A stretch of DNA of 64,000 bases from a virus, in IMG/VR virus record IMGVR_UViG_3300045581_000334, positions 1 through 64,000 of that record. One strand, 5' to 3'. Position 1 is the first letter of the stretch, and each line of letters opens with the position of its first letter. The notes below the pieces were generated by a model that was not told the origin of the DNA, did not search any database, and saw nothing but the letters and a program-made list of their open reading frames with translations. The translations under genes and the position numbers were made by a program. Positions 38,299 through 59,692 of the stretch are shown here, one piece after another.

Positions 38299-38865
38299 TC
38301 AGGCAAACAGTTCTGGGTTTAGTTTAGTAGGAAGCTCTGTTGTGCCTCTAACAAATACAGTGGTGAAATATCTTATATCGTCACTTAGGACGGGAAGTGA
38401 GCCGTGAACTATATGTCCTCCATGTATAAATAGCGAATTAGCTTTTGGCTTTATGGTAATTCCTAGATCAGGGTAGTCCAATTCTCCACCCTCATAGTCA
38501 TCATTAAAATATAAACACAATCCATACCCAATATAATAGTCTATATCAGTTCTCCACTGATCAGCATGATGCTGTATAAAATCTCCCTTTTTATACCTTT
38601 GTAAAATCATACCAGTAGGATAATACGAATAAGATTCAAATAAGGATTCCATTTTTTTATTTGCTCTTGAGAATACATTTTCTTCTTCAAAGACTATCTG
38701 TTTGCCAAACCAGAAATCGGGAATTTGATTTTTAACTCTCATCTCTTCATTATTCCAGTCTTCTTCAGAAAAACTGTTTATAATTTTTTTTACTTCTTCA
38801 AATTCTGAGTCTGTTAGGAAATTTTCTACCTCATAAACATCATCGTATATCTTGTTTATCTTCAT
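38299..38865 (-). CDS. 2OG-Fe(II) oxygenase, prolyl-4-hydroxylase-like (#7)
   Basis: HAD, YFNDDYEGGEL, distal H (VHG), R(Y). Confidence 0.9.
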   Translation of the reverse strand: MKINKIYDDVYEVENFLTDSEFEEVKKIINSFSEEDWNNEEMRVKNQIPDFWFGKQIVFEEENVFSRANKKMESLFESYSYYPTGMILQRYKKGDFIQHHADQWRTDIDYYIGYGLCLYFNDDYEGGELDYPDLGITIKPKANSLFIHGGHIVHGSLPVLSDDIRYFTTVFVRGTTELPTKLNPELFA

Positions 38866-38871
38866 AAATTC

Positions 38872-39540
38872 CTAATTATATTTATTATTATTTATGTGAC
38901 TTATCTCTATATGGTTTATATTTACATGACTAGGTAAAGATCCTACCCATCTAATTGTTTCAGCCATATCTGCAGCAGTTAAAGCGTTATCCTTTTTCTC
39001 TAACTGTGTGTCTATTGTTCCTGGGCACACTTCCGTAACCTTAATTCCATATGCTGGGAATTCCATTCTCATAGTGTCTATTAATCCCATTTCTCCACGT
39101 TTAGCATTTGAATAATTTCCGCTTCCACGGTATGGTACTTTTCCACACAAGGAAGTGACAAAAACAATAGTCGGAGATTCAGAATTTTTCATTGCTGGTA
39201 CAAACAATTGAGACAAATACATTGGTCCAGAAACATTGATATCATACGCTCTTCTAAAGTTTTCCATAGTTTCGTTTATTAGATATGTTGGCCCTGCTCC
39301 ACCGCCAGCATTATTTACTAATAGATCTAAAGTTATATCTTTATATTTATCGTAGAATGCCTTGATGGCTTTTTCATCAGTAATGTCTAAGCTGTATGTC
39401 TCTATGTTGTCAGAAGCAATCTCTGCCAACTTAGATAAATTACGTGACACAGCAATAACTTTGTACCCATTTTGGGATAAAACTTTTACTGTTTCGTAAC
39501 CTACGCCCTTGCTAGCTCCAGTAACTATGGCGGTTTTCAT
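38872..39540 (-). CDS. Short-chain dehydrogenase/reductase
   Basis: TGASKGVG, NNAG, catalytic YSNAK. Confidence 0.92.
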   Translation of the reverse strand: MKTAIVTGASKGVGYETVKVLSQNGYKVIAVSRNLSKLAEIASDNIETYSLDITDEKAIKAFYDKYKDITLDLLVNNAGGGAGPTYLINETMENFRRAYDINVSGPMYLSQLFVPAMKNSESPTIVFVTSLCGKVPYRGSGNYSNAKRGEMGLIDTMRMEFPAYGIKVTEVCPGTIDTQLEKKDNALTAADMAETIRWVGSLPSHVNINHIEISHINNNKYN

Positions 39541-39542
39541 AT

Positions 39543-40241
39543 TTACATCGTTGGATTATTTACTGGCTCCATGGTTCTATACCAATGAAGTGGTACCATA
39601 TACTTAAATCCGCTCTTAACTAAGTGTGCGGTGTGATGATATGGTGGAGATGATGGGAATATAATAACGCTCCCTGCCTCTGGCTTAATGGCTATAGTAA
39701 CTCTGTTTCCATCTTTTGCTACGGCAAAATCTTCTTCTGGCTTGCCCTGTATGATTGGTGCGTCTGGAGATTCAATGGTAAATGAAAGTTCTCCACCCTC
39801 GTAATCATCGTTTAAATAAAACACAAGTGAGTACTTTAATCTAGTGTCTCCTTCTTGCTGATCAAAGTGTGCTCCCATGTAGGTTCCTGGGCTATACTTC
39901 TTAATATCAAATAATGGGAAATTGATGGGAGTTTCGTTGTCTCCGTGAGCTTCCGCATAATCTTTACAAACGGCATAGAAGGCATCCATGATGGTGTTAT
40001 AAATGTATCCAGCCTTATTGTCTGTTGTTTTAATTACTCTCTCTTCATCAGATGGGTTTACAGTTTTTTGAGCTCCGTAAAGATACATCTCTCCACTACA
40101 GGCTGTCCACTCATTCCATTTAGTAACTGAATTACCCCATTCCTCATTTTCTGTGGAATCAATCATCTCCACAAACTTTTTTGGATCTGGTATTACGTTC
40201 TTGTAATAGTAAACATTTTCTTCTAATATTTCTTTTTCCAT
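39543..40241 (-). CDS. 2OG-Fe(II) oxygenase, P4H-like (#6)
   Basis: HFD, YLNDDYEGGEL, FPS..PY.H, K(Y). Confidence 0.9.
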   Translation of the reverse strand: MEKEILEENVYYYKNVIPDPKKFVEMIDSTENEEWGNSVTKWNEWTACSGEMYLYGAQKTVNPSDEERVIKTTDNKAGYIYNTIMDAFYAVCKDYAEAHGDNETPINFPLFDIKKYSPGTYMGAHFDQQEGDTRLKYSLVFYLNDDYEGGELSFTIESPDAPIIQGKPEEDFAVAKDGNRVTIAIKPEAGSVIIFPSSPPYHHTAHLVKSGFKYMVPLHWYRTMEPVNNPTM

Positions 40242-40242
40242 G

Positions 40243-40986
40243 TCAATCTCCTATTTTATATTTCTTACCATTTGGATCAATCTTATAACCTTCTTTAAGA
40301 AGATCTTGCCACTCCGCCTTTTCTACTGCTTGCTGATCTCTAATCTTCTGCATTTCTTCTGCCCAAGCATCTCTGACTTCTTGTGGATAATCTGATTCTT
40401 CTCTATCGTCCCAGAAAGACCCTAGAGTGTATCTAACTCCTGAAGTTATCATACTTACTTCATGCATGTTATTAAATCCGCCATCAAATGCAGCTAACAA
40501 TCCAGTCTTAGGCTGTATGCTAATATCTTGTGATGGAAACTTAAGCATACCACCCTCAAAATTATCATTCAAATATAAGAAGGCTGCGTATCTACTTCTT
40601 GCAAATGGCCCAGTGTTTCCTTTTTCATCTGTGTTGTCTGAATGTATTCTTGCATATGCTCCAGGCTCCCACTTTTGAGTATGGTATCCAATTTGAACTA
40701 CCTTTTTAGGATCTAGTCCATGAACTGAAGCAACAGCATCTATAATTCCAGATCTAATTTGAGAAAATATGTCTGACTCCAAGCCAAACTCTTCTATCTC
40801 TGGATCTCCATCTTGTGGCAAAACCGATGAGTAAGATTCATAAAAAGAAATTGGAGTCCATGATAGTTTTTCTGTTTCAGCCTGCTTGTCTAAAACTTTT
40901 ATTAAAGCAGCGCACTGCTCTTCAGTTAAAAAGTTTTCATAAAGGACTATGTCCTTAGTCAATCTATTTTGATTATTTAAATTCAT
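40243..40986 (-). CDS. 2OG-Fe(II) oxygenase, P4H-like (#5)
   Basis: HSD, YLNDNFEGG, HEV, RYT. Confidence 0.9.
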   Translation of the reverse strand: MNLNNQNRLTKDIVLYENFLTEEQCAALIKVLDKQAETEKLSWTPISFYESYSSVLPQDGDPEIEEFGLESDIFSQIRSGIIDAVASVHGLDPKKVVQIGYHTQKWEPGAYARIHSDNTDEKGNTGPFARSRYAAFLYLNDNFEGGMLKFPSQDISIQPKTGLLAAFDGGFNNMHEVSMITSGVRYTLGSFWDDREESDYPQEVRDAWAEEMQKIRDQQAVEKAEWQDLLKEGYKIDPNGKKYKIGD

Positions 40987-42603: not shown

Positions 42604-42609
42604 ACTTAA

Positions 42610-43329
42610 TTATACCATTCCATTAGAAGCAGTATTATCATTTACAGATAACCTCAAAGTCTTAGTTTCATGAGAACCTAAAGAATTACCGTTCTCATCT
42701 ACAGCGTCTCTATACCAATCCGTCCAGTTTCCAGAAGAATTTATAACCTGTGCGGCTTCTCCATAAGACATATTAGCATTGTGTCTAGACCTGTCATCAT
42801 CTCTATACTGAACGATCTCTATAACTGAATTGTTTAAGTTACTCAAAGATATTGGAATTATTGTAGCTATTGGAGTACCAGCCTTGATTACAGTTTCTAC
42901 ATTTGCCTTTTTAGCTTTGATTGCTAAAGGCAATGGATTATCATAAAAAGATGTGCTCATTAAATTAGACATTGTTTCAAAATCTTCATTAAAATAATTT
43001 ACTGGATTTATTGTCCATATACTAACATCTGGGTCTGTCCTAAAAACCATACCTGTATTTAGACTTATTGTAGACTGTCCTCGTCCAGAGTAAGCATCAG
43101 CAGGTTTAGTTATCTTTACATGCTGGTCTGTCTGATCATTTATTCCATCCCAAGTAAAAATTATATCTTCTGTGCAGGATAAGTTCCATCCTACTACGTT
43201 GGCCTGTGTTACTGGAAAACATCTGTAGGCATGCTTTTCTGAGGTAACATCCATCCATTCTCTTTTAATAGACATTGGATCTATTTTAAACTTACACCCT
43301 TGCATTTTTTCTACCGATATATTAATCAT
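42610..43329 (-). CDS. DUF6065-like protein
   Basis: R.WMD....HAYRCFP...AN..GW and GTPIA.IIP motifs. Confidence 0.65.
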   Translation of the reverse strand: MINISVEKMQGCKFKIDPMSIKREWMDVTSEKHAYRCFPVTQANVVGWNLSCTEDIIFTWDGINDQTDQHVKITKPADAYSGRGQSTISLNTGMVFRTDPDVSIWTINPVNYFNEDFETMSNLMSTSFYDNPLPLAIKAKKANVETVIKAGTPIATIIPISLSNLNNSVIEIVQYRDDDRSRHNANMSYGEAAQVINSSGNWTDWYRDAVDENGNSLGSHETKTLRLSVNDNTASNGMV

Positions 43330-44012
43330 TATTCATTATCCCACTTTGGATCATACATATCTGGCGTATGATATTTTTTGCTATAATCAAGCATTGTAAC
43401 TATTGAATGTTTAGTTCCACTAGTTACTGGCATAGCTCTATGAGGATACATAAAATTAGAAGGAAATATATACAGGTCTCCAGCTTTTGGCTTTATGTTT
43501 AAACCCTGAAGTCTAAAAAATAGCTCTCCGCCTTCGTAATCATCGTTTGGGTATGCTACAAGTGACACAGTACAGTTATAAGAATATCCATGATCATGAT
43601 GTTCTTGAAAGTGTTGGCCTGGTCCATATTTAATAAAATTAAAAGCTTCCCAATATTTTAATGGCATAATGTTAAACATTCTACGATAATCTTCAACTGC
43701 AGGATTTTGGGCATCATACACATCTTGCCACAAAGACTGTAGCTTTAATGATTCTTCGCTTTTATCTGCCTCTATGTCTGTTTTTTTAAACTTAAAATCT
43801 ACACAATCTCTATAGTCTGGCATAAGTTGTTGGTATCCAACATAAGCTGGATTCCAGTGGTATCTTTTGCCATCTGGAGATAATTGTCCCCATGGGGCAA
43901 CCTCTCCCAATACGCTGTCAAGTCTGTTTATAACATCAATTTCTGGTTTTATAACGTCTCTATAAACAACAATTCCTGTAGCCACTTCTTCTTTGCTAGA
44001 CCATGTTTGCAT
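43329..44012 (-). CDS. 2OG-Fe(II) oxygenase, P4H-like (#2)
   Basis: HHD, YPNDDYEGGEL, FPSNFMYPH; close paralogue of 44773..45483 (EAFNF.KY..G.HF..H.DHG..YNCTVS). Confidence 0.9.
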   Translation of the reverse strand: MQTWSSKEEVATGIVVYRDVIKPEIDVINRLDSVLGEVAPWGQLSPDGKRYHWNPAYVGYQQLMPDYRDCVDFKFKKTDIEADKSEESLKLQSLWQDVYDAQNPAVEDYRRMFNIMPLKYWEAFNFIKYGPGQHFQEHHDHGYSYNCTVSLVAYPNDDYEGGELFFRLQGLNIKPKAGDLYIFPSNFMYPHRAMPVTSGTKHSIVTMLDYSKKYHTPDMYDPKWDNE

Positions 44013-44773
44013 TACTTGTACTCTCTTCTTGACCAGACATTCTTTATGTATACCCCACCGTCGGGAACCCTATACTTTTTCATGTTGTCATTCATTTTAG
44101 CATAAATGTCATTTTGAGACAATAGCTCTATTTCACTTTCCCAATCTTCTCTTTTAAATGGGATAATTTGCATATATGGGGTTCCAGCTTTAATTGTGCC
44201 TTCATATCCATCAACAACAAAAAATGGGAATGTTCCAGACAAATGAACTTTATCGTTATCTACAATCCCAGTAGTATTTAAAAATGGAAGATCGAATCTA
44301 TTCATTGGTGTCATATATATACAGCTGTATCCTTCTGGAACCTCTAGACCCCAATCTGGCTGCCAAGCAAAGTGATACTTGTAGTAACCCTTTGGGTGCT
44401 CAAACTGTGGCATGGGTGGCCTTCTTGATACGAAGTCTCTGCAGTTTAATTCTGAAACCTTGACATCAATATTTCCCTGACTGTCTTTAAAAAATGTTAT
44501 GTCGCATGGTGTTTTTAAAACGTAACCTGTTGAGAACCCATCCATAATTGCTGGGCAAGCTTTCCAAGTTGGGATCTTGCCATAATCATCCTTAGTTCCT
44601 TCTTTTGGAAATGGACAAACCGCTTTAGGAGCTTTAAAATAATCTCCGTTTGGCATCTTAGCAAATCTGTCTGCCTCCTTGTACCACTTTGGCATCACGG
44701 AGTGTGTTGTGGCAGGAGTTGACTTGCTATCTTTTTTTAACCAGGGCCTGAATGACCTAAAAATTATTTTCAT
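44012..44773 (-). CDS. 'KxCP' family protein (DUF6065-related)
   Basis: P.WYK, TWKACP..D....GY, PMNRFDLPF....GIVD.D, GTP..QIIPF.RE.W. Confidence 0.7.
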   Translation of the reverse strand: MKIIFRSFRPWLKKDSKSTPATTHSVMPKWYKEADRFAKMPNGDYFKAPKAVCPFPKEGTKDDYGKIPTWKACPAIMDGFSTGYVLKTPCDITFFKDSQGNIDVKVSELNCRDFVSRRPPMPQFEHPKGYYKYHFAWQPDWGLEVPEGYSCIYMTPMNRFDLPFLNTTGIVDNDKVHLSGTFPFFVVDGYEGTIKAGTPYMQIIPFKREDWESEIELLSQNDIYAKMNDNMKKYRVPDGGVYIKNVWSRREYK

Positions 44774-45483
44774 TACTTATGACCGATTTCATTAATGTCT
44801 GTCATAATAACAACACAATACTTAGTTCCCTCTTTCATTGGCAATGACGCATGTTCATAAATATAGTTTGATGGGAATATTGCAATATCTCCAACTTTTG
44901 GGGTATGAATATGATTATCTAATCTTGGAAATTGTATCTCTCCACCCTCGTAGTCATCGTTAATATAAATTACTGCAGATACAGTACAATTATATGCTGG
45001 CCCATGGTCGGCATGAATTCTAAAATGCTTACCTTCTCCTTCATACTTTACAAAGTTAAATGCTTCATAATATACAACATTTATCCCCCAGTATCTTGCG
45101 TAATCATCAATACAAAATTTTAACTTCTCATAAATTTCATTATGTAAATCAATTAATGGAGCATTAAATTCATTTTTAGGGCCAAGGTTTTCTGGCTTAA
45201 ATTTAAAATCTACGCAGTCCCTTGCCTTTTTAATCGGAACTACAGAATTTGTTACTTGAGCCTCTGACCATCTATATCTGGCCCCATTAGTTAAGTTGTC
45301 TTCAAGTATCTTTATATATCTTTCTGCGTCCTCTTTTGAAAAAGTATTATGATAAATGTTTAGACCTAATCCTGGATTAGTAGTTGTAATAGTACTGTTA
45401 ACTCTTCTTTCTGGCAGCCTATTAGAAGCTGTCTCAGATCTATCTTTATTAAACCAGTGGTCTTGTGGGTCTTGATAATTCAT
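44773..45483 (-). CDS. 2OG-Fe(II) oxygenase, P4H-like (#1); start placed at the ATG at 45483
   Basis: HAD, YINDDYEGGEI, FPSNYIYEH; AGGA RBS before MNYQD; a promoter -10 abuts the track's GTG start. Confidence 0.9.
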   Translation of the reverse strand: MNYQDPQDHWFNKDRSETASNRLPERRVNSTITTTNPGLGLNIYHNTFSKEDAERYIKILEDNLTNGARYRWSEAQVTNSVVPIKKARDCVDFKFKPENLGPKNEFNAPLIDLHNEIYEKLKFCIDDYARYWGINVVYYEAFNFVKYEGEGKHFRIHADHGPAYNCTVSAVIYINDDYEGGEIQFPRLDNHIHTPKVGDIAIFPSNYIYEHASLPMKEGTKYCVVIMTDINEIGHK

Positions 45484-45540
45484 TGTTTTTCCTACCTTTA
45501 CAAACACATTGTATCATAATAAATATTTTATTATGTTTAA

Positions 45541-46587: not shown

Positions 46588-46588
46588 C

Positions 46589-47059: not shown

Positions 47060-47092
47060 TATTAATTACCCTTCTAATAATAAGAGGTTATA

Positions 47093-47121
47093 ATAATAAC
47101 ACATTAAAAAAAATGTGTCAA
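47093..47121 (-). promoter_or_regulatory. Sigma70/SigA-type promoter for the Dps-like gene
   Basis: TTGACA, 17-nt spacer, TGT-TATTAT. Confidence 0.7.
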
Positions 47122-47123
47122 TA

Positions 47124-48823: not shown

Positions 48824-48824
48824 T

Positions 48825-50421: not shown

Positions 50422-50428
50422 GTTAAGA

Positions 50429-51053: not shown

Positions 51054-52532
51054 TTACGAAATTACTAAATAATTTCCAACTAGGAACCAAGCATGTGGGG
51101 CTGTTCTAATTTCATAAACATCTCCCTCATCAAGTATTTCAATCTTTTCAACTGGAACATATGAAACCTTTCCAGAGTTGCTATCAATATTTACAAGAAT
51201 ATCTCCTACAACAATATCTTTAGGTTCTTTAGTACCAATTCCAACTTCATTTTTAATAAAGATTGGCTGATATGGTGAGAATAAATTTTCACCATCATTT
51301 AATTTAATTAACTGCTTTTGGCTTAACTCGCTCTTAACAACTTCTGTTTCAATAAATTCAACATTATCAGATATTGACACGTTGTTTAGTGTATCAGAAT
51401 TTGTTAAATAACTTGGGTCAACTGTAAGCAAAATATCTCCTACCTTAATGTCTTCAGCATTAACATATCCATTGCTGGTAAGGATTTTAGATTTTGCATA
51501 GACACACTTATATCCCTTAGAGAAAGTTGGGAAGTATGGTGGGAAGAATGGGAAGAATGGGAAGTACGGGAAGAAAGGTGGGAAGAATGGGAAGAATGGG
51601 AAGTACGGGAAGAACGGTGGGAAGAATGGGAAGAATGGGAAGTACGGGAAGAACGGTGGGAAGAATGGGAAGAATGGGAAGTACGGGAAGAACGGTGGGA
51701 AGAATGGGAAGAATGGGAAGAATGGGAAGAACGGTGGGAAGAATGGGAAGAATGGGAAGAACGGGAAGAACGGTGGGAAGAATGGTGGGAAGAACGGGAA
51801 GAACGGTGGGAAGAATGGGAAGAACGGTGGGAAGAATGGTGGGAAGAACGGTGGGAAGAACGGGAAAAACGGTGGGAAGAACGGTGGGAAGAACGGTGGG
51901 AAGAACGGTGGAAAGAACGGTGGGAAGAACGGAGCTAAAGTTGTTATGCTGCTAGTTGTTGCTCCAGCAGAAGGCCCATTAGCGTTTGTTGCGGTAACAG
52001 TATAAGTTTGCGAAGTTCCTGCGGTATCTGAAATTACTACTGATGTTGCTGAGGCTGACAAGTCTCCTGAAGAAGATCCATCGCTACCAGTAACATTGTG
52101 TTTAGTTATTGCTTTTCCTCCGTTTGCCCCAATAGTCCAGCTAATTGTATTTTGATTAATTCCAGCTGTAGCAGTAACTGATTGTGGAGACTGAGGAACT
52201 GTAGTAATTGGAACAGATGAACTTGTTGTAGGAGAAGAAGATCCAGCATTATTTGATGCAACTACGGTGAATGTATAACTACCTGCAGATAAGCCAGTAA
52301 ATGTATAAGATGTATTAGTGGTTGTTTGGCTTGATGATGCAGGAGTTGTAGTAATTGTATAAAGAGTTGCTGGTGGAGATGCTGCTGGCAAAGACCAGCT
52401 TAAAGAAGCGGCTCCATTTCCGTATGGTCTACCTGTTCCTACGTCGGAAGCAGATAATCCAGTTACAGCATTTGGCTCTAAGAAATTATCTTGAGCTGAA
52501 GACTTTCTTCCTCTTCTTTTACTTGATGCCAT
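51054..52532 (-). CDS. FN3-FN3-(Pro/Phe repeat)-Hint domain protein (PF protein 2)
   Basis: Two FN3-like units, a 137-aa PF tract, then CVYAKSKILTSNG..IKVGD...VYEI....WFLVGNYLV (Hint blocks A, F and G-like). Confidence 0.8.
   Translation of the reverse strand: MASSKRRGRKSSAQDNFLEPNAVTGLSASDVGTGRPYGNGAASLSWSLPAASPPATLYTITTTPASSSQTTTNTSYTFTGLSAGSYTFTVVASNNAGSSSPTTSSSVPITTVPQSPQSVTATAGINQNTISWTIGANGGKAITKHNVTGSDGSSSGDLSASATSVVISDTAGTSQTYTVTATNANGPSAGATTSSITTLAPFFPPFFPPFFPPFFPPFFPPFFPFFPPFFPPFFPPFFPFFPPFFPFFPPFFPPFFPFFPFFPFFPPFFPFFPFFPFFPPFFPYFPFFPFFPPFFPYFPFFPFFPPFFPYFPFFPFFPPFFPYFPFFPFFPPYFPTFSKGYKCVYAKSKILTSNGYVNAEDIKVGDILLTVDPSYLTNSDTLNNVSISDNVEFIETEVVKSELSQKQLIKLNDGENLFSPYQPIFIKNEVGIGTKEPKDIVVGDILVNIDSNSGKVSYVPVEKIEILDEGDVYEIRTAPHAWFLVGNYLVIS
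51522..51932 (-). repeat. Coding tandem repeat (PPFF/PFF/PYF)n, 137 aa, with a higher-order 39-bp unit PYFPFFPFFPPFF
   Basis: Direct reading of the sequence. Confidence 0.97.
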
Positions 52533-52558
52533 CTTCTTCTCCTTTTATATTAATTCTA

Positions 52559-55500
52559 TTAGGCTGACAAATCTCCAGCTAGCAACCAAGTATTTGTTGC
52601 TACTTTTGTTAATGTTGCCGATGAATAAGTTGTTCTTAACTTTAGCCCTGGTGTAGCTAGAATTGAAACTGTACCGTCTGCGGCTGCAAAACTTGCACCC
52701 GTTCCTGCAGATTGATAAAAATCAATTGAAGTTCCTACTGGGTAGGCTGTTGTTGAATTTGTTGGTACTGTTATTACATATGTTCCAGATACTGGTATTA
52801 ATTGATCTCTTAATGAGAGTCCTCCAGTTGACAAATTGTATGCTGCTGAAATTGTTGTACCAATTGTAGTAAGTGAAGGAACGCCTTGTTTTGTCTGAGT
52901 TCCATCAGTAAATACTACGCCTGCAACTTCAACGTTATTTACTGCAAGATTGTCTAGAGATCCCTGTCCAAAATTTACAGTTGTTGCTGGCTCATCTGCT
53001 ACATCCTTGAAAATCTTCCACTTGGAATCAGAAACGTCTCTTACAATACCTGCGTGTTTTGCTGTGCCGTCTGTATATGCTACAACAAGACCAAGGTCTA
53101 CGGTATTTGCCGCATTTTGATGAGCAAGCTGAACCATGTTATCTTCAATAACAATAGATGTTGAGCTTGCATTAAATGTTGTACCATTTACTGTTAAATT
53201 TCCGTCAACAGTCATATTGCCGTCAACTTCTAGGTTTCCAGTAAATGTTTGATTAGCAGCATTCTTATATGCTAATTGTGATGTATCAGAAATTCCGTGT
53301 ACTGATGTTGTTGCTGAAGTATGAGATGTTACAGTAGAAGAAGCAGCCTTAGCATCAATCTGTGTTTGTACTGCTGAGGTTACTCCATCTAAATATCCTA
53401 TTTCAGTTGAGCTAACATTTCCAACAGATGTTGTGGACGGAAGTACTACCGTACCAGTAAATGTTGGAGAAGCGATTGGTGCATAAGTTGAAGCAGCTGT
53501 TGCTGATGCAAGCTTAGTGTCAATCTGTGCCTGAATTCCAGAAGTCACTCCATCTAGATATCCAATTTCTGTTGAGCTAACATTTCCAATTGCTGTGGTG
53601 CCAGGAAGTGTTACCGTACCAGTAAATGTTGGGCCAGAAGAAGGAGCCTTGGATCCAAGATCTGATACCAGGTTGGCAATCTTAGACTGTTCAATTTCTG
53701 CTGAAGCATTAATATCAGCATTTACAATTGTTCCATTTGCAATCTTTGCAGAAGTTACTGCTCCGTCATTAATTTTTTCAGTTGTTACAGCCAAGTCATT
53801 GATCTTGGCAGTTTCTACTGCCGAAGATGCTAATTGTGCTGCAGCAACTGCTGAGTCTGCAATTTTATCAGATGTTACCGCATCATTTGCAATTTTAGCT
53901 GTTGTAACATTTAAATCTGTAATTTTTACAGTAGTTACAGAATCTGCAGCAAGTTTATCTACTGTCACAGAAGTGTCTGCAATTTTTGCTGTAGATACAG
54001 AACCTGCAGCAAGCTTATCGCTGGTTACAGATAAATCATTTATCTTTCCTGTAGTTACAGCCAAATCAACAATTTTTGCTGTAGAAACTGTATTGTCTGT
54101 TGGAGTTCTGGTATCAGACAAACGAGCATCATCTGTATACACAAGATTTGCTGTATTTGTTATACCATGTATGCTGGTTGTATCATCAGCATGTGATGTT
54201 AAAGCTGTCCCAGCAGTTGTTTCTGCAGCAGATTGAGCTGCTGATGCAGCATTATCTGCATAAGACTTGGTTGCCAAATCTGCAGTATTTGAAATACCAT
54301 GTACGCTAGTTGTGTCTGCGCTGTGATTGCTTAATTCTGTTGCTGCAACTGTGCCAACATTATCTGCATAAGCTTTTGTTGCAAGAAGAGAAGTATCTGC
54401 TATTCCGTGAACATTATAAATAGTATTATTATGTCCAGTTAAATTAGACGATGCAGTATTCCCATATCCTTCTATTAAATTATCTACATATGCTTTATTG
54501 GTAGCATGCAAAGCTCCTACTGGATCGCCGCTTAGTGTTAAAGCTCCAGTCATCGTATCCCCAGCCTTAGAAACCTTAGTTCCAATGCTGTTGCTTACAG
54601 TAGTCGCAAAACTTGGATCGTCTCCAAGTGCTGCTGCCAACTCATTAAGAGTATTTAATGCAGCTGGTGAAGAATCTACTAAATCTGCAACCTTTTGGTC
54701 AGCGTATGCCTTAGCATCCACCTCAGCTTGATCTGCGTAAGCTTCATAAGCATTAGTAATTGCTGTTTCACGACCAGCAACATAAGCTTCATAAGCAGTG
54801 GTGATTGCTGTCTCACGAGCATCAGTGTAAGCTTTAGCATCTACTTCAGCTTGATCTGCGTAAGCTTGATAAGCGGTGGTAATTAACCCTTCACGTGTAT
54901 CTGTATAAGCTTTAGCATCTCCTTCTGCCTGATCTGCATAAGCTTCATAAGCAGTGGTGATTGCTGTCTCACGAGCATCAGTGTAAGCTTTAGCATCTAC
55001 TTCAGCTTGATCTGCGTAAGCTTTTGTAGCAAGGTCAGCTGTATTTGCTATACCATGTACGTTAGTTGAATCATTTTCGTGATTCGAAAGATTTGTTGCA
55101 ACAGTTGTAAAGAATGTAGGGTCATCTCCAATTGCTGCTGCTAATTCATTTAAGGTATTTAATGCACCTGGTGCTCCATCTAGCATGGCAGTTACTGCCG
55201 CATTTACTGCGTCATTAATTGCTTGAGTTGCTGTTAGCTCTTTCCAGTTTGCATTTGTGCTTGCAGGGGTTGATTGAAGCACATATGATGTTCCATTGTC
55301 TGACTGAATTGCAATATCGCCTGGTTCAACAGTAAGGGCAAGACGAGCTGCTTGGTCTGCAACAGAATGAACTGTAATTTTTGCAAGTGGCGGCAAGTTC
55401 TGAGCTTTAATGTAGCCACTGGCATCTAATTGTGGCACTCCGTCTGGCTGGCCATAATCATCTGTAGTTAATGGTGTACCATCATTATTGACGATAGCAT

Positions 55501-55651
55501 AATCTAGATTTCTCCAGTTAGTTGAGCCATCACCAATCTTAATTCTATTTGTGTCTGTTTCAATAGCAAGCTCGCCTGCTGCTAATTGTGGATTTGCGTC
55601 ATACCAATCTTGGTACTCGCCTCGTCTAAGTTGAATTCTTACTGTTGCCAT
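52559..55651 (-). CDS. Long fibre protein with Mtd-N-like N-terminus
   Basis: IQLRRG...W...NP.LA.GE...ETDT...KIGDG...W..L; two LNTLNELAAA.GDDP.F motifs; VT..KI.D repeats; C-terminal PGLKLR..SSATL.K...N.W...GDL. Confidence 0.8.
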   Translation of the reverse strand: MATVRIQLRRGEYQDWYDANPQLAAGELAIETDTNRIKIGDGSTNWRNLDYAIVNNDGTPLTTDDYGQPDGVPQLDASGYIKAQNLPPLAKITVHSVADQAARLALTVEPGDIAIQSDNGTSYVLQSTPASTNANWKELTATQAINDAVNAAVTAMLDGAPGALNTLNELAAAIGDDPTFFTTVATNLSNHENDSTNVHGIANTADLATKAYADQAEVDAKAYTDARETAITTAYEAYADQAEGDAKAYTDTREGLITTAYQAYADQAEVDAKAYTDARETAITTAYEAYVAGRETAITNAYEAYADQAEVDAKAYADQKVADLVDSSPAALNTLNELAAALGDDPSFATTVSNSIGTKVSKAGDTMTGALTLSGDPVGALHATNKAYVDNLIEGYGNTASSNLTGHNNTIYNVHGIADTSLLATKAYADNVGTVAATELSNHSADTTSVHGISNTADLATKSYADNAASAAQSAAETTAGTALTSHADDTTSIHGITNTANLVYTDDARLSDTRTPTDNTVSTAKIVDLAVTTGKINDLSVTSDKLAAGSVSTAKIADTSVTVDKLAADSVTTVKITDLNVTTAKIANDAVTSDKIADSAVAAAQLASSAVETAKINDLAVTTEKINDGAVTSAKIANGTIVNADINASAEIEQSKIANLVSDLGSKAPSSGPTFTGTVTLPGTTAIGNVSSTEIGYLDGVTSGIQAQIDTKLASATAASTYAPIASPTFTGTVVLPSTTSVGNVSSTEIGYLDGVTSAVQTQIDAKAASSTVTSHTSATTSVHGISDTSQLAYKNAANQTFTGNLEVDGNMTVDGNLTVNGTTFNASSTSIVIEDNMVQLAHQNAANTVDLGLVVAYTDGTAKHAGIVRDVSDSKWKIFKDVADEPATTVNFGQGSLDNLAVNNVEVAGVVFTDGTQTKQGVPSLTTIGTTISAAYNLSTGGLSLRDQLIPVSGTYVITVPTNSTTAYPVGTSIDFYQSAGTGASFAAADGTVSILATPGLKLRTTYSSATLTKVATNTWLLAGDLSA
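54750..55030 (-). repeat. Intragenic direct repeats encoding AYADQAEVDAKAYTD.RE..ITTAY
   Basis: About 4 near-identical copies at DNA level. Confidence 0.85.
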
Positions 55652-55697
55652 TTTATTTTATACCCCTATATTAGAATTATACCACTTGCTTATTTTA

Positions 55698-56018
55698 CTA
55701 GGAAATGACTCCTGAATCAAACGTAAGAGCAAATGATGTACTGCTTGGGGAACCGCCATCGGCATATTTCGTAGCCTCAGTCACTACCCCGTCTCCACCA
55801 ACTGAATATATTGGTGAACCATTATAATCAATAGCCAAGCCAATATCATTGAATCCTATATCATTTGAGTCTGATATATCAATCCATTGACCATTAACCT
55901 GAATTCTTAATTTATTATTATCTGTATTAAATACTAGGGGTACTGAACCTAGTGTAACCTGTCCAGACTGGACTACTAGATTATTCTTAACCTTAAAATC
56001 TCTATTTGTTGTTGCCAC
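55698..56018 (-). CDS. Small virion/fibre adaptor-like protein
   Basis: N-terminus MATTNRDFKVKNNL resembles that of 56086..57696; C-terminal DGG motif. Confidence 0.6.
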   Translation of the reverse strand: MATTNRDFKVKNNLVVQSGQVTLGSVPLVFNTDNNKLRIQVNGQWIDISDSNDIGFNDIGLAIDYNGSPIYSVGGDGVVTEATKYADGGSPSSTSFALTFDSGVIS

Positions 56019-56042
56019 GAGTTCAATATCCCCCGAATTTTA

Positions 56043-56067
56043 GGTGGGGGATTTTGTGTCCCCCACC
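56043..56067 (-). terminator. GC-rich hairpin (terminator or RNA-stabilising element)
   Basis: GGTGGGGGA-CACAAAA-TCCCCCACC; no clear U-tract. Confidence 0.6.
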
Positions 56068-56085
56068 AATTTAATTATTTAGTTG

Positions 56086-57696
56086 TTATGCTATTAATGT
56101 TCCAGCAATTGTTACAGTGCTGTTGTTATTTAGAGTTGTTACTCTAATTCTAAAATGAGTTCCATCATGATCTGCTGTAATTGTTGACAAAGATCCGTTT
56201 GTTCCAACAACTCCATATTCTGTCATATGAACATTATTGCTTGTATCTGAAGTTACAAGGATTTCAGATAACTCTGTGTGGGTACCATTTGCAATTTTAA
56301 CGGTGAATTTACCGCTCTTATAAGCTGTATGGTTCCATTGATAAGCAGTTACTGTACTAGCTGTAGGTACAGAGACTGTGGCTGCAACATTTTTAGCAAC
56401 ACCATTAAAGTCAATTGCTGCATATACTGGTTCTGCTACTGCATTACCAGCAAGTATTGCTCCGTCTGTATAAGAATTTGCTGAAGCAACTGCATCAGAT
56501 TCTGCTTGATCTACATACTGCTTTGTAGCTGCCTCAAGAGCATTTACTGGATCTGCATGTAGTACCAGAGCGCCAGTCATTGTTCCGCCAGCTGTTGCTA
56601 GCTTAGTTGCAATGCTGTTTGCTACTGTAGTAAAGTAATTTGCATCATCATTAATTGCTGCTGCAATTTCATTTAATGTATCAAGAAGTGCTGGGGCACC
56701 ATCTACAAGAGCTGAAATTTGGCTGCTAACCCATGTCTTATCAGCAGTAACTGTTGTATCAATTGAGAATTCACCAGTTCCTGAATTGTATGATAAACCA
56801 TTACCAGCATTTACTGATCCACGAGCACGAGTATCTGTATAGTAAAGATTGGATGCACCCTCTTCAATATCATCTGTGTCTAAGGCATTTATTGCGCTAT
56901 CTGTATAAGAAGCAGCGTTTCCTTCAGCTGTAGATGCTGCGCCATATGCATCATATGTATTTGCAGATACATTAATAATTCCGTCTGCGGCATTATATGT
57001 TATTCCAGTTCCTGCAGATACTGCATTTCTTGCACGACCATTTGTAAAGTATAAATTAGATGAACCTTCTTCAATGTCATCTGAATCTAAAGCATCTACT
57101 ACTGTACTTACTGCATTATCGGCGTAGGTTTTTGTAGCAATTGTATTATCTACAGAAATTACACCTGTTGAGTTGTCATAGCTAATTCCTGTTCCGCCAG
57201 AAACTGCTTGACGAGCTCTTGTGTCAGTAAAGTATAAATTAGATGTTCCCTCTGCTAAATCATCAGTATCAGAATCTGCTACTCCGTTTTCAGCAGTAAT
57301 TGTAAGACCAGCACCAGTGCCAGTAATTGTAATATTTGTTAAGTTAGCATTTGTTAATAAATCTGCTGCAGAAGTTTTAGCACGAGCATCCGTAAAATAT
57401 TGATTTGTACCTTCTGCTAAATCACCAGTATCATGATTTGAAATATCTGAAACTGTACCTGTTACGTTACCAGTTAGATTTGCTGTAATTGTTCCAGCTG
57501 AAAAATTACCAGAACCGTCACGCTTAACAACCTTGTTAGCTTCATTTGCGGAGGTTGCGGTACCGCCAATAAGATCGATAATATAATTTTGATCATCGGT
57601 CTTCTTTGTTAATATATCAAAACCGCCTACGGTAGCGCTACTTCCTTCAACTACCAGGCCATTTTTTACTCTAAAATTTTTATTTACTGTTGCCAC
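56086..57696 (-). CDS. Fibre/decoration protein with D(T/S)xD(L/I)xEG..N(L/Q)Y(F/Y)T..RA repeats
   Basis: Four such repeats, an LDTLNEIAAAI motif, C-terminal beta domain. Confidence 0.7.
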   Translation of the reverse strand: MATVNKNFRVKNGLVVEGSSATVGGFDILTKKTDDQNYIIDLIGGTATSANEANKVVKRDGSGNFSAGTITANLTGNVTGTVSDISNHDTGDLAEGTNQYFTDARAKTSAADLLTNANLTNITITGTGAGLTITAENGVADSDTDDLAEGTSNLYFTDTRARQAVSGGTGISYDNSTGVISVDNTIATKTYADNAVSTVVDALDSDDIEEGSSNLYFTNGRARNAVSAGTGITYNAADGIINVSANTYDAYGAASTAEGNAASYTDSAINALDTDDIEEGASNLYYTDTRARGSVNAGNGLSYNSGTGEFSIDTTVTADKTWVSSQISALVDGAPALLDTLNEIAAAINDDANYFTTVANSIATKLATAGGTMTGALVLHADPVNALEAATKQYVDQAESDAVASANSYTDGAILAGNAVAEPVYAAIDFNGVAKNVAATVSVPTASTVTAYQWNHTAYKSGKFTVKIANGTHTELSEILVTSDTSNNVHMTEYGVVGTNGSLSTITADHDGTHFRIRVTTLNNNSTVTIAGTLIA

Positions 57697-57713
57697 TCTG
57701 ACAACCCCCTTAT

Positions 57714-58265
57714 TTAAGCCTTAAGCGCAGTCCGCACAAATCTGGCTGTAACAGCCGAAGTTGTGGGGGTCACGCATAAACTAATTATACCTGAATTTAC
57801 TTCAAATGTGATGTCAGCTAAACTATTTGAAGTATTTGATATGATGTTGGATTCTGATACATTAATATCAGTTCCATCATTCAATAGCAGGTAGTCAGAT
57901 GAAACATATTCACTACCTTTTGTTATTTGTAAGCTGTATTTAATTGTTCTATAAAGGCTAGCAGACCAATTATCTATAGCTGTTTTGTTTTCTATTCCAG
58001 TTATAGTTAAATCGTTATTGCCTTCCAGCCCTAATAATTCTAAAGTCGCATCTGATTGATTGTCTAAATCAAAAAGTTGTGACTCTAAAGATGATATTTT
58101 ATAGTCTAAAGATGTAGTTACATTTGAGCCATCTACTCCAACTTTAGCTTGTAATGCTTCTAACGCATCGTTTACATTTCCATGCAAAGCGGCATGGCCT
58201 GCCATGCTGTCTGTGCCTTGTGGATTATTTAAATTATCTAAACTTGCTGGAAAATTAGTTGCCAA
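57714..58265 (-). CDS. Virion structural protein
   Basis: MATNFP.SLD....H...NDA..ALQ.KVG N-terminus; C-terminal domain resembles that of 56086..57696. Confidence 0.6.
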   Translation of the reverse strand: MATNFPASLDNLNNPQGTDSMAGHAALHGNVNDALEALQAKVGVDGSNVTTSLDYKISSLESQLFDLDNQSDATLELLGLEGNNDLTITGIENKTAIDNWSASLYRTIKYSLQITKGSEYVSSDYLLLNDGTDINVSESNIISNTSNSLADITFEVNSGIISLCVTPTTSAVTARFVRTALKA

Positions 58266-58584
58266 CTTGGCCTCCGTCTAGCAACGTCAAGTTTGCAAAA
58301 CTTGGATCGCTATATACTGAATCTGGATCACCGCCATCAAGTCCAATTATAACAGGAATTGTTTCATCTACAGACTCAATGTTGTTGATATCATATGTAA
58401 AATTAATTGTTTCTTGTATATCTATAGTATGAACGTCTCCGTCATAACTATGGGTATGCATGTAAAATGGAGCAGGCTGTTTGTCCATAGACAGCTCCCA
58501 AACTTGCCCGTTCCATTTCCATGAAACATTGCCACTTGTATGCTTTTGGTTAAGTGTTGGATTTAAAGGAAAAATTGTGGGCAT
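58255..58584 (-). CDS. Small virion protein
   Basis: FP.NP..NQ......W.WNG..W N-terminus; two LDGG motifs. Confidence 0.6.
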   Translation of the reverse strand: MPTIFPLNPTLNQKHTSGNVSWKWNGQVWELSMDKQPAPFYMHTHSYDGDVHTIDIQETINFTYDINNIESVDETIPVIIGLDGGDPDSVYSDPSFANLTLLDGGQVGN

Positions 58585-58611
58585 CTTCTAATTATACCTC
58601 TAAATATATTA

Positions 58612-58899
58612 TTACCACTTATTAAGTGGACATTTTGCATCTTTTAATTTAGTTTTTAAAAACATAAAGCATCCACATTGCTTACAGGTAGATGTTTCTT
58701 TTATTAATTCAGGGCAAGAAAGGCATGTATTAAATCTTTGTGACGACTCTTCTTCTGAAGATGTAGAAACTGATGGGTCAACTTTATGCCAGGGCATACC
58801 GTAATTATTAGATAAATTTAAAGCCTCTAAATCTTTTTCTATTTCATCAGGCTTTTTAGGCTCTAAAAAATACTCAGATAGATCTATACTGTTTTCCAT
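58612..58899 (-). CDS. Cys-rich metal-binding protein (DUF6171-like)
   Basis: R...C..CP......C.QCGCFM..K......CP..KW. Confidence 0.75.
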   Translation of the reverse strand: MENSIDLSEYFLEPKKPDEIEKDLEALNLSNNYGMPWHKVDPSVSTSSEEESSQRFNTCLSCPELIKETSTCKQCGCFMFLKTKLKDAKCPLNKW

Positions 58900-58927
58900 A
58901 ATTAAATTATATCATTCTGTAATATGT

Positions 58928-59692
58928 CTAGCAAGGGTAGTTTCCTCCTCCGCCTCCGCAAGATCTGACATCTGAAGTTATGCATGACCCAAATCCTATA
59001 AATGTAGGAGAGGAACATATTTGATATGTTCCATCTGAACAAAGTTTCCTGGTTCCCTCATAAATTCCTTGATATGAGTCCTCGCCATTACATGTAGGAA
59101 TAATAACTTGATATGGCTCGCAATTTCCACAACTAAAAGATTGGAATGATGGTGGGAAGAATGGCGGGAAGAATGGGAATGATGGTGGGAAGAATGGCGG
59201 GAAGAATGGGAATGATGGTGGGAAGAATGGCGGGAAGAATGGGAATGATGGTGGGAAGAATGGCGGGAAGAATGGGAATGATGGTGGGAAGAATGGTGGG
59301 AAGAATGGGAATGATGGTGGGAAGAATGGCGGGAAGAACGGTGCAAAGTAAGGTGGGAAGAACGGCGGGAAGAATGGGAAGTACGGCGGGAAGAACGGTG
59401 GGAAGAACGGGAAGAATGGGAAGAACGGTGGGAAGAACGGCGGGAAGAATGGAGGCGCTACATATCTATAATAGACAAAAGGAACAGTATCTCCCAATAA
59501 AGAAACTGAGTTTTCTGAAACTCCTTGACTTTGAATTAAATTATCAAGATTAATATTTGCAGTATCTATATATGATTCTGTATAATTTAACCCTAAAGAA
59601 TTTAAATCGTTTTTAGCTTGAGACCTAGATTTTCCAGATAAATTTGGAACATTTCTTTTTCTTCTTCCGTGTCTACCAAATAGACTAAACAT
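58928..59692 (-). CDS. PASTA-(Pro/Phe repeat)-Cys-rich protein (PF protein 3)
   Basis: VPNLSGKS..QA...L...GL........I.SQ.......G..V (PASTA), a 104-aa PF tract, and an 8-Cys C-terminal tail. Confidence 0.75.
   Translation of the reverse strand: MFSLFGRHGRRKRNVPNLSGKSRSQAKNDLNSLGLNYTESYIDTANINLDNLIQSQGVSENSVSLLGDTVPFVYYRYVAPPFFPPFFPPFFPFFPFFPPFFPPYFPFFPPFFPPYFAPFFPPFFPPSFPFFPPFFPPSFPFFPPFFPPSFPFFPPFFPPSFPFFPPFFPPSFPFFPPFFPPSFQSFSCGNCEPYQVIIPTCNGEDSYQGIYEGTRKLCSDGTYQICSSPTFIGFGSCITSDVRSCGGGGGNYPC
59144..59455 (-). repeat. Coding tandem repeat (PPFF/PFF/PPSF)n, 104 aa, with a higher-order 33-bp unit PFFPPFFPPSF
   Basis: Direct reading of the sequence. Confidence 0.97.

Follow-up and report, generated by a model that had tools for sequence, protein, structure and literature searches.

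A Pro/Phe polymer gene paired with a P4H-type oxygenase operon in freshwater phages

The window, a stretch of 64,000 nucleotides from an uncultured, siphovirus-like lake phage, holds one copy of a module that is widespread in freshwater phages. In this module, the gene for a protein with a long Pro/Phe (PF) tract (51054-52532) is the last of a tail-fibre gene block and is followed downstream, on the same strand, by an operon of P4H-type oxygenases. This pairing of polymer gene and hydroxylase operon is seen again in hundreds of phage fragments, so that phage oxygenase arrays, a puzzle since 2010, now have in the polymer a first concrete substrate candidate. Judging from gene neighbourhood, we lean modestly towards the view that the operon enzymes modify the polymer after translation. 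A functional link of this kind had been suggested by the first-pass annotation and is supported by our analysis, whereas its RiPP-like alternative and its inclusion of a neighbouring set of tailoring enzymes have little in their favour.

Proteins bearing Pro/Phe tracts

Three proteins with PPFF/PFF tracts had been reported in this DNA as otherwise unlike one another, and both statements hold: their translations contain tracts of 61, 138 and 104 residues, and no significant mutual similarity is found under low-complexity masking. The tracts are tandem arrays in the DNA (39 nt x 9.5 for the 138-residue tract, 33 nt x 8.9 for the 104-residue one, 45/57 nt x 3.5 for the 61-residue one). A codon pattern for PPFFPPFFP was matched at 16 places on the record's minus strand, and the reversed control pattern at one.

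The polymer protein adjacent to the cassette (P0001, 492 aa; 51054..52532, minus strand) is composed of an N-terminal motif, two FN3 domains (Pfam fn3, E = 3e-09), the tract and a C-terminal Hint domain. The motif, basic residues followed by SAQDNFLEP, is kept in 30 homologues. The PPFF/PFF/PYF tract (aa 200-337, 138 aa; P57, F74, Y5) is encoded by a 39-nt tandem repeat at 51522..51935 (minus strand); contigs from all four sequencing runs break there, and two DNA runs show a 266-nt 'goes back' joint, a sign of a variant with a longer tract. In the AF2 model, pLDDT is above 90 at residues 20-200 and 343-492 and only 41-59 in the tract, which has no secondary structure and is thus modelled as non-globular.

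The Hint or bacterial-intein-like (BIL) domain (51057..51506, minus strand) begins at a Lys-Cys junction and ends with VIS. Because His-Asn is missing from its C-terminus, it is expected to cleave at the N-terminal side only. A profile built from six such C-termini matched the BIL domain 2lwy (E = 1.5e-11) as well as inteins, and members of the alignment other than the window copy matched Pfam Intein_splicing, PT-HINT and Hint_2. Some Hint domains in relatives end with HNK and some start with Ser in place of Cys. The C-terminal cap itself varies: other members have a Cys-rich knot, or simply end in Lys. Across relatives, polymer proteins have 250-550 aa and tracts of about 40 to 158 residues, of the PPFF/PFF type in the window and PPGFF[G/A/S] in sister phages.

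The other two proteins are also encoded on the minus strand. The second (254 aa; 58928..59692) has a 104-aa tract (aa 80-183) with six PPSF and two PPYF units, followed by a C-terminal region with nine Cys, and 1 nt separates its gene from the upstream gene (59694-61685), which encodes a collagen-like tail fibre with GPQ/GIQ repeats and matches to tail-fibre and collagen-like minor-tail PHROGs. The third (959 aa; 6351..9230), at the end of a tail gene module, has an internal 61-aa tract (aa 776-836) and an orthologue in locus L011; its neighbours at 12820-13677 and 14057-17371 match tail PHROGs. Directly upstream of P0001, fibre-like genes at 52559-55651 and 56086-57696 (within 52559..57696, minus strand) match PHROG tail and tail-fibre families, with E down to 4e-30. 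The earlier placement of the tracts at fibre tips was drawn from gene position only.

The oxygenase operon and its lineage-specific insert

What had been described as one 13-kb island is a conserved 7.2-kb core (38299-45507) and a 5.5-kb lineage-specific insert (45541-51052), which occupies a variable slot between polymer gene and core. The core genes, all on the minus strand, are tightly packed, with intergenic gaps or overlaps of at most 20 nt. The first is P4H-type 2OG/Fe(II) oxygenase A (44773..45507; PF13640, 42.9 bits; HxD...H...K), with clear orthologues in 110 loci, followed by a DUF6065-like dUTPase-fold cysteine protein of subfamily b (KxCP type; 44012..44773), which matches the family HMM and overlaps both neighbours by 1 nt. 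Paralogue B (43329..44012; PF13640, 53.6 bits) has orthologues in 129 loci and precedes a DUF6065 protein of subfamily a (HAYxCFP motif; 42610..43329; PF19541, 100 bits). Then come paralogues C (41875-42603), D (40983-41894), E (40243-40986) and F (39543-40241), an SDR (short-chain dehydrogenase; 38872-39540) and paralogue G (38299-38865), with C to G assigned by Pfam. The first-pass calls of seven oxygenases and an SDR are thereby confirmed: all seven 2OG-FeII_Oxy_3 genes pass the Pfam cut-off, and the SDR matches with E = 3.7e-43.

Metal- and 2OG-binding residues (HxD...H...K/R) are intact in all seven paralogues. These share 20-41% mutual identity, form one separate orthogroup each and keep the order ABCDE(x)F(G) across loci; they diverged anciently. 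For the core oxygenases, the best matches are to protein hydroxylases rather than to TET/JBP or small-molecule clades. The proteins earlier labelled 'KxCxP' are divergent DUF6065 homologues. DUF6065a is modelled with high confidence (AF2 pLDDT 94.8), and Foldseek matches it to dUTPases (E = 6e-5, TM 0.6-0.7 on target), a fold that points to nucleotide chemistry; Cys37 is invariant among 46 sequences. DUF6065b is homologous to gp43 of Synechococcus phage Syn9 (BLASTP E = 1e-9, hhalign probability 97.4%). In haloarchaeal tailed viruses, a DUF6065b-like gene has thymidylate synthase and DNA polymerase as neighbours, and the annotation shows no oxygenase close by.

The insert, also on the minus strand, encodes a TylF methyltransferase (50429-51052; E = 2.8e-15), a third, divergent DUF6065 homologue (49816-50421), an rSAM-SPASM protein (48825-49892; both domains found, CxxxCxxC motif), a Cys/Met PLP enzyme (47765-48823; E = 1.5e-82), a 33-aa CxxCGC peptide (47663-47764) and a Sulfotransfer_4-like protein (47124-47666), in addition to two genes absent from the first-pass annotation, one weakly ferritin-like (46589-47059) and one IMPDH/GMP-reductase-like (45541-46587; E = 8e-74). 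Domain matches bear out the TylF, rSAM-SPASM and PLP calls, whereas the sulfotransferase-like call is tentative: its Pfam match lies below threshold (E = 0.017), and the only other pointer is a lead from a language model (score 0.91). The CxxCGC peptide is real and under purifying selection, its first 16 codons showing 9 synonymous and 0 non-synonymous differences from the orthologue in locus L128. Among about 200 PF- or DUF6065-seeded loci searched, L128 was the only one in which the whole insert set was found again; one further contig (L131/L098) has just the rSAM. The near-identical record G001 begins inside the PF tract, has its first P4H 6.5 kb on and probably holds the insert set too. 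Being so rare, and seen in only two close relatives, the insert genes are not a general part of the system, as they had been taken to be.

Co-occurrence of polymer and core across viruses

Joint distribution of PF tracts and multi-P4H/DUF6065 islands had been put forward as the way to check the link, and the result was strongly positive in both directions and within one capsid-defined clade. In the forward direction, 119 PF-tract loci from IMG/VR (1.06 Mb) were compared with 119 (PT)n-tract control loci (1.14 Mb). The PF loci gave 329 P4H hits in 87/119 and 117 DUF6065 hits in 68/119, against 9 P4H hits in 7/119 and DUF6065 in 1/119 of the controls (Fisher p = 1e-28 and 4e-25), counts that shared ancestry inflates because the loci are phylogenetically non-independent and come mostly from a few related lake-phage lineages. 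Where a PF locus had no P4H nearby (30 cases), the whole record held P4H genes elsewhere in 18; most of the remaining 12 are short pieces of 4-15 kb.

In the reverse direction, DUF6065a relatives occur in at least 553 viral loci, and among the best 80 of these a PF ORF lies upstream on the same strand, usually at 2.2-3.0 kb, in all 41 loci with at least 4.5 kb of upstream DNA. PF tracts were present in 61/84 DUF6065-seeded loci. Furthermore, capsid-related phages that have P4H clusters without strict PFFPPFFP carry a PPGFF/PPSFF-type polymer directly upstream (10/10), in proteins with the same N-terminal motif and FN3 domains as the PF proteins. The two cassette types are syntenic: the fibre genes come first, the polymer gene next, and after 0-3 small genes the series P4H-D65b-P4H-D65a-P4H x n-SDR-P4H. 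Among 28 long PF records, the capsid protein is 78-89% identical in 7, about 41% identical in 9 and undetectable in 12. Co-occurrence both ways and within a clade speaks for a functional connection of the polymer protein with the oxygenase/DUF6065/SDR core.

Possible substrates and nearest known systems

The sequence data establish the identities and folds of the genes' products, the catalytic residues, the synteny and the co-occurrence; from this neighbourhood we infer an enzyme-substrate relation and its chemistry, a virion location and a role for DUF6065. The oxygenases would hydroxylate the polymer post-translationally, with paralogues differing in the position or carbon targeted within the Pro-Pro-Phe-Phe unit, and the SDR would act further on part of the hydroxyls so formed. 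The tail, extremely hydrophobic and non-globular at first, would thus be converted into a rod or adhesive of hydroxylated polyproline type that sits on a virion appendage, and the Hint domain would self-cleave at the Lys-Cys junction to leave a polymer ending in Lys, like that of Hint-less relatives. The methyltransferase, sulfotransferase-like enzyme and rSAM of the insert may add further decoration in this lineage, which is the weakest part of the proposal. Several points weigh against the polymer as substrate. Known P4Hs target Pro in X-Pro-Gly, Ser-Pro or PAPK contexts, and no P4H is known to accept Pro-Phe; seven enzymes are many for a two-residue polymer; and the Syn9 oxygenase array, in which no Pro/Phe polymer was found when gp33-gp40 were searched, indicates that such an enzyme set can exist without a polymer substrate.

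These phages also have more P4H genes away from any polymer gene (e.g. 68721-68972 of G000), which would suit an operon whose targets are proteins of the host envelope or further proteins of the fibres and virion, such as FN3-rich fibres and the collagen-like fibre, with the polymer gene merely ending the fibre block or serving as an enzyme accessory. The Syn9 array directly follows tail-fibre genes, with no PF polymer found in gp33-gp40, and the window has its collagen-like fibre with GPQ repeats. However, collagen P4Hs hydroxylate Pro at the Y position, whereas the window repeats have Pro at X; collagen-like repeats, the classical P4H substrate, were found in 0/84 DUF6065-seeded loci; and the operon is in every case preceded directly by a polymer protein gene, even where the polymer is of the PPGFF type, and never by another fibre gene. 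Such targets are therefore unlikely.

We consider it distinctly unlikely that the operon makes or alters a small molecule, nucleotide or DNA base, with the polymer functionally unrelated. Iyer et al. 2010 proposed that the tandem dioxygenase array gp41-gp54 of Syn9, which has Trp halogenases, makes a secondary metabolite; they put forward no protein as its substrate (PMC2938197). The dUTPase fold of DUF6065, the thymidylate synthase adjoining its haloviral homologue and the IMPDH/GMP-reductase-like, PLP, methyltransferase and rSAM genes of the insert would fit, but those insert genes are lineage-specific, no NRPS, PKS, ATP-grasp or terpene synthase was found in the core or in families common to PF-seeded loci, the oxygenases lie closest to protein hydroxylases, and the strict two-way adjacency to the polymer gene is left unaccounted for. 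Least probable is a RiPP-like route, in which the polymer protein is a precursor whose tract is modified and cut, with help from Hint, into released Pro-Phe peptides. Although a precursor beside enzymes, an N-terminal motif that could act as recognition leader, a predicted self-cleaving Hint domain and, in this lineage, rSAM-SPASM and CxxCGC genes fit such a route, its precursor would be a protein of full size with two well-folded FN3 domains at the end of a fibre block. In addition, its tract varies in length unlike defined RiPP cores, Hint would cut only at the C-terminal end of the tract, most relatives have neither Hint nor rSAM, and among the core genes there is no sign of a protease or exporter. 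The analogy once drawn with antamanide and cyclolinopeptide found no support.

The module can be set beside several known systems. BIL/Hint domains of variable surface proteins (2lwy) share the C-terminal Hint fold and a Cys start directly after a variable region, but in the window copy what comes before the domain is a Pro/Phe polymer, and the carrier is an FN3 protein of a phage. Among solved structures, P4H-B is matched best by B. anthracis P4H (PDB 5iax/3itq), collagen LH3 and mimivirus L230, in which the Fe-binding HxD...H and the 2OG-binding Lys are aligned; identity is only about 25% over the catalytic core, and these enzymes act on Gly-X-Y collagen repeats, none of which occur beside the cassette. 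As a precedent, the P4H of chlorovirus PBCV-1 reportedly hydroxylates, in vitro, Pro-rich repeat peptides of the same virus. Like the phage of the window, PBCV-1 encodes proline-rich repeat proteins of its own as well as a P4H of the collagen type, but it is a eukaryotic virus with one enzyme in place of a seven-paralogue operon, PAPK-like in place of Pro-Phe repeats, and no DUF6065, SDR or Hint. That P4H work (Eriksson et al. 1999) is cited in PMC9301287.

The first-pass statement that no such system had been described holds only by half: a tandem dioxygenase array that includes a dUTPase-fold cysteine protein has been known from Syn9 since 2010 (PMC2938197), though with no polymer as substrate. 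That array shares with the window its place after tail-fibre genes and gp43, the homologue of the DUF6065-like genes; it differs in having Trp halogenases and a JmjC-type (MINA-clade) member, in lacking an SDR, and in its backbone, a T4-like myovirus of marine cyanobacteria rather than a siphovirus-like lake phage. Among cultured phages, the nearest relatives of P4H-B are cyanomyovirus oxygenases, at 33-37% identity.

Polymer proteins and their genomic setting

All genes of the window lie on the minus strand, and near-identical DNA has turned up in ten or more freshwater metagenome studies. The parent IMG/VR record is 76.7 kb long with an estimated completeness of 64%, and its first 64 kb make up the window. 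In the direction of transcription, a fibre-like gene (61696-63150) is followed by a tail-fibre-like gene with collagen-like repeats (59694-61685), which contains two long (GPQ/GIQ/GEQ)n blocks with Pro at the X position of the triplets. This gene ends 1 nt upstream of PF protein 2 (58928-59692), one of three proteins carrying a tract of PPFF/PFF repeats (PF tract). Two more fibre-like genes (56086-57696 and 52559-55651) lead to PF protein 1 (51054-52532), the polymer protein, which directly precedes an enzyme island (38299-51052). Downstream of the island come a ConA-like lectin-domain protein, the portal, the protease and the major capsid protein. Next is an open reading frame of 3092 aa, a probable tape measure judged only by size and position; minor tail proteins and a 1192-aa gene follow, and PF protein 3 (6351-9230) closes the series. 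With 63% identity to its counterparts in 130-kb Streptomyces siphophages (cluster BE), the capsid protein gives the sole hint of an actinobacterial host, one not relied on here; WhiB was not found in the 76.7-kb record, nor a tRNA in the 64-kb window.

The first-pass annotation had described three proteins that resemble each other only in a Pro/Phe tract, and this description holds. The tracts of PF proteins 1, 2 and 3 span 138, 104 and 61 residues of nearly pure Pro and Phe, with periodic Tyr in the first and Ser in the second, and the remainders of the proteins are unrelated. Because four-residue PPFF units are mixed with three-residue PFF units, there is no strict period of three, and a collagen-like triple helix is rejected; another frame or the opposite strand is rejected as well, since only the PF frame runs on into FN3 and Hint domains. 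At the DNA level, the tracts are young tandem arrays with periods of 39, 33 and 45/57 nt. Short-read assemblies break at such repeats, and the genomes of these phages are therefore systematically split at the polymer gene, a practical matter for virome assembly. Many viral contigs start or end within a PF tract (e.g. G001, a near-identical record, at 1-69; record G060 at 1-300; loci L007, L062 and L146-L148), and window positions 51.5-51.9 kb are a break point of contigs in four sequencing runs. A 266-nt joint that 'goes back' in two DNA runs suggests tract-length variants.

The N-terminal motif of PF protein 1, basic residues followed by SAQDNFLEP, is conserved in dozens of homologues. In the AF2 model, it is followed by two confidently modelled FN3 domains, the tract (pLDDT 41-59, without predicted secondary structure) and a C-terminal domain (residues 343-492, pLDDT 84-96). 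A profile from six such C-termini matches the bacterial intein-like domain 2lwy in the PDB (E = 1.5e-11) as well as inteins, and this match, together with a nucleophilic Cys as first residue at a Lys-Cys junction, marks the domain as Hint. The window protein and that of locus L101 end in VIS and lack the C-terminal His-Asn, so only N-terminal autocleavage is expected for the window Hint; the copies of L034, L048 and L119 end in HNK. The predicted autocleavage would leave a polymer with the end ...KGYK. Sorted by C-terminal cap, 151 distinct polymer proteins comprise 57 with a Cys-rich knot (6-9 Cys in 20-45 residues), 48 with a short end, 20 with another short form, 18 with a longer form containing other domains and 8 with Hint. 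The final residue is Lys in about half of the short-end proteins, and the Hint class would likewise reach a Lys end by predicted cleavage. In several sister phages with PPGFF-type polymer proteins (loci L413, L415, L416 and L418), the Hint-like cap, judged by eye, seems to start with Ser instead of Cys (…KS VGINTLLRTP.G…), which, if right, points to an intermediate of the ester and not the thioester type.

Linkage of the oxygenases to the polymer

A codon-pattern scan of IMG/VR for PPFFPPFFP returned at least 119 stretches. Among the 119 PF matches listed, 329 P4H hits fall in 87 loci and 117 DUF6065 hits in 68 loci, whereas 119 (PT)n control loci of similar total length contain 9 P4H hits, spread over 7 loci, and a single locus with DUF6065 (Fisher p ~1e-28); as the loci belong to related phages, these counts are not independent events. 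Of the 30 PF loci without a local P4H among the matches listed, 18 have one elsewhere on the record. In the reverse direction, the mixed DUF6065 alignment was too divergent as a seed, and the subfamily-a alignment was used. It gave at least 553 relatives, and among the best 80 of these a PF gene lies upstream on the same strand, typically by 2.2-3.0 kb, in 41/41 loci with enough upstream DNA. The co-occurrence of PF tracts with P4H/DUF6065 islands, proposed in the first-pass annotation, is thus borne out from both sides. Collagen substrates were found at 0/84 DUF6065-seeded loci; classical collagen is not the partner of the operon.

In the 28 long PF records compared, identity to the window capsid protein is 78-89% in 7 and about 41% in 9, and in 12 no such protein was detectable. 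A set of 23 long records has a capsid 79-96% identical to the window's, and the strict PF pattern occurs in 3 of them and P4H genes in 16, at first sight a result against the linkage. All ten P4H clusters of this capsid clade that lack the strict pattern have, upstream, a polymer protein with the same N-terminal motif and FN3, built of PPGFF[G/A/S] or PPSFFS and mostly Hint-capped. The operon partner is therefore a family of Pro-Pro-x-Phe-Phe polymers, which the strict pattern under-counts. In the clade records with neither polymer nor P4H, the contigs stop short of the relevant side of the capsid gene. Two cassette architectures exist. In the second (L092 9876-10457 and related loci), the polymer ends in …PPGFK and glutathione-peroxidase-like genes (Pfam GSHPx, E = 3e-11) stand among the oxygenases, where they perhaps handle oxidants from uncoupled turnover.

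The core of the island (38299-45507) reads P4H-A, D65b, P4H-B, D65a, P4H-C, -D, -E, -F, SDR and P4H-G, D65a and D65b being DUF6065 proteins, with gaps or overlaps of at most 20 nt and one-base overlaps among the first four genes. All seven oxygenases match Pfam 2OG-FeII_Oxy_3 (PF13640) at 28.7-53.6 bits (cut-off 27), and alignment places the Fe(II) triad HxD...H and the Lys/Arg that binds the 2OG C5 carboxylate in 7/7; the catalytic residues of paralogue B align with those of B. anthracis P4H. Their closest solved relatives are protein hydroxylases. Mutual identity is 20-41%, each paralogue forms a separate orthogroup (clear orthologues in 66-149 loci for six, in 18 for G), and the order of paralogues is conserved across loci, most commonly as ABCDE-x-F. 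Judged by these orthogroups and this order, the seven paralogues are ancient, each with a conserved role of its own, and did not arise by recent duplication. P4H-type genes also occur away from polymer genes, at 68721-68972 (+) of the parent record, outside the window, and as a second cluster of four at 15-19 kb of the complete 113-kb relative (G046).

Neither the island nor the polymer protein has a match in cultured phages, whether sought as near-identical DNA or as protein; the low-complexity filter masks the tract, so this negative carries little weight. A promoter and terminator scan of 36.5-56 kb gave counts equal to shuffled sequence and is silent on co-transcription either way. Near-identical contigs in two metatranscriptome libraries cover the core, parts of the insert described below and a fibre gene; they are not counted as proof of transcription, because the libraries can contain DNA and contigs cannot show expression.

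DUF6065 proteins and the insert

D65a (42610-43329) matches PF19541 at 100 bits, while D65b (44012-44773) and a third protein (49816-50421) have no Pfam match and join the family through a paralogue HMM and hhalign to gp43 of Synechococcus phage Syn9, which is homologous to the DUF6065 family of the window. The AF2 model of D65a (pLDDT 94.8) has a dUTPase fold (Foldseek to dUTPases, E = 6e-5), and Cys37 is invariant in 46/46 sequences. DUF6065 may accordingly have a nucleotide role, one suggested by this fold and by haloarchaeal tailed viruses, 49 records of which encode a DUF6065b-like protein (25-29% identity). In Halorubrum tailed phage 7 (HRTV-7, L212), the gene (6848-7738) adjoins thymidylate synthase and a family-B DNA polymerase, with no annotated oxygenase within 7 kb, so DUF6065 is not tied to oxygenases everywhere. 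True dUTPases carry five conserved motifs, with the catalytic Asp in motif 3; no obvious dUTPase motif was seen in the family consensus on informal inspection. DUF6065a has no match in cultured phages. Its 8 matches in bacterial and archaeal genomes, mostly lake MAGs, lie on short contigs of unrelated taxa and are read as mis-binned phage DNA in preference to cellular homologues. A literature search on 'DUF6065' returned nothing relevant.

The first-pass annotation had treated the enzyme island as one unit. Its enzyme calls are right, but the island consists of the core and an insert (45541-51052), and two genes at 45541-47059 (-) had been missed: a member of the IMPDH/GMP-reductase family (E = 8e-74), which falls short of all curated NCBIfam cut-offs, and a gene with a weak match to ferritin/Dps (E = 1e-3). 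The full insert gene set recurs only in locus L128 among about 200 loci searched. It is probably also present in G001, judged from spacing, as this record begins within the PF tract and its first P4H lies 6.5 kb further on. Other phages have unrelated small genes or a glutathione-peroxidase-like gene at this position, so the insert is cargo in a variable slot. Its rSAM (PF04055, E = 9e-12; SPASM PF13186, E = 4e-12; CxxxCxxC motif CNAGCWFC) reaches the cut-off of none of the curated NCBIfam subfamilies, and recurs in one other contig (L131), preceded there by a small Cys protein of the DUF6171 family, which carries the motif CKQCGC. The sulfotransferase-like gene scores 15.4 bits against PF17784 Sulfotransfer_4 (E = 0.017), below the cut-off of 22.8, and its nearest language-model clusters (score 0.90-0.91) are 97-99% Sulfotransfer_4. 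The third DUF6065-like gene and the enzymes that act on hydroxyls (an O-methyltransferase and a possible sulfotransferase) would be consistent with additional tailoring of the polymer; that the insert is a small pathway unrelated to it is equally possible.

A gene for a 33-aa CxxCGC peptide (47663-47764, -) sits between those for the PLP enzyme and the sulfotransferase-like protein; the peptide begins MCWMCGCADHVGLGND, and the stop of its gene overlaps the ATG of the next. Compared with the L128 orthologue, the first 16 codons have 9 synonymous and 0 non-synonymous differences, and the acidic C-terminal half varies. Its motif recalls the CKQCGC of the DUF6171 protein in L131. The peptide may be a partner or substrate of the rSAM, and beside this enzyme it forms a separate candidate RiPP precursor. 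The polymer system itself, for which the first-pass annotation had offered a RiPP-like reading as one alternative, does not qualify as a RiPP cluster: the protein proposed as substrate has 492 aa and contains two FN3 domains, and 38299-51052 yielded no family of proteases or transporters. Within the peptide gene and upstream of the sulfotransferase-like gene, 47673-47700 (-) fits the sigma-70 consensus perfectly (TTGACA, 16 nt, TG-TATAAT; 12/12); this may be a chance match, since shuffled sequence has as many promoter-like sites as the region overall.

A proposed pathway and its known relatives

The best-supported reading of these gene neighbourhoods, somewhat more likely than not, is that the oxygenases modify the polymer post-translationally. 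Beyond this, we tentatively propose a dedicated lake-phage pathway in which the poly(Pro-Pro-Phe-Phe) tail of a fibre-region protein becomes heavily hydroxylated. Each of the roughly seven oxygenase paralogues would be responsible for a single position or carbon, a pair of cysteine proteins with dUTPase fold would be a new kind of helper, Hint self-cleavage (or ligation) would free the polymer end, and in the window lineage the polymer would possibly also be O-methylated, sulfated or cross-linked. For all these steps jointly, we put the chance somewhat below even. If true, phages chemically tailor their appendages with multi-enzyme pathways, virions bear a new class of enzymatically tailored protein polymer, and DUF6065 gains its first function. 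Pro-Phe polymers would then join the short list of hydroxyproline-rich structural proteins, which includes collagen, extensins and mussel adhesives. Genes for P4H-type 2OG oxygenases rank with the most frequent 'auxiliary' genes that aquatic phages carry, and their viral use was called cryptic in a 2022 virome paper (PMC9301287); under the proposed pathway, the 'P4H auxiliary metabolic genes' that abound in aquatic viromes would have a structural role, not a metabolic one.

Among the papers searched, none links Pro-Phe polymers with phage oxygenases, and 'PPFF' with phage gave nothing relevant. Two elements are known already: the enzyme array, and the idea that a viral P4H targets Pro-rich repeats encoded by the same virus, the latter reportedly described by Eriksson et al. 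in 1999. The tandem array of Syn9 (gp41-gp54) was published in 2010 (Iyer et al. 2010, PMC2938197), and arrays of this type are still without a substrate. Like the core of the window, the Syn9 array lies downstream of fibre genes, starting directly after the tail-fibre/fibre-assembly genes gp32-gp39 (L332, NC_008296, intervals 10455-10949 and 14055-14843); unlike in the window, no Pro/Phe polymer was found in gp33-gp40, so the enzyme set can exist without one. Just before two Trp halogenases, Syn9 gp40 ends in a short Pro/Trp/Tyr-rich tail, …PCWKRYPGWSGYIPP…, a possible cyanophage equivalent of the polymer tail. Relative to these systems, the window contributes three polymer proteins within a single genome, the form with a Hint cap, a lineage-specific insert with a selected CxxCGC peptide, PPGFF sister polymers within one capsid clade and a direct homology link to Syn9 gp43. 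With an easily synthesised, genetically defined candidate substrate, (PPFF)n or (PPGFF)n, adjoining the enzymes in hundreds of phage fragments, the substrate question of aquatic-phage P4H arrays becomes testable.
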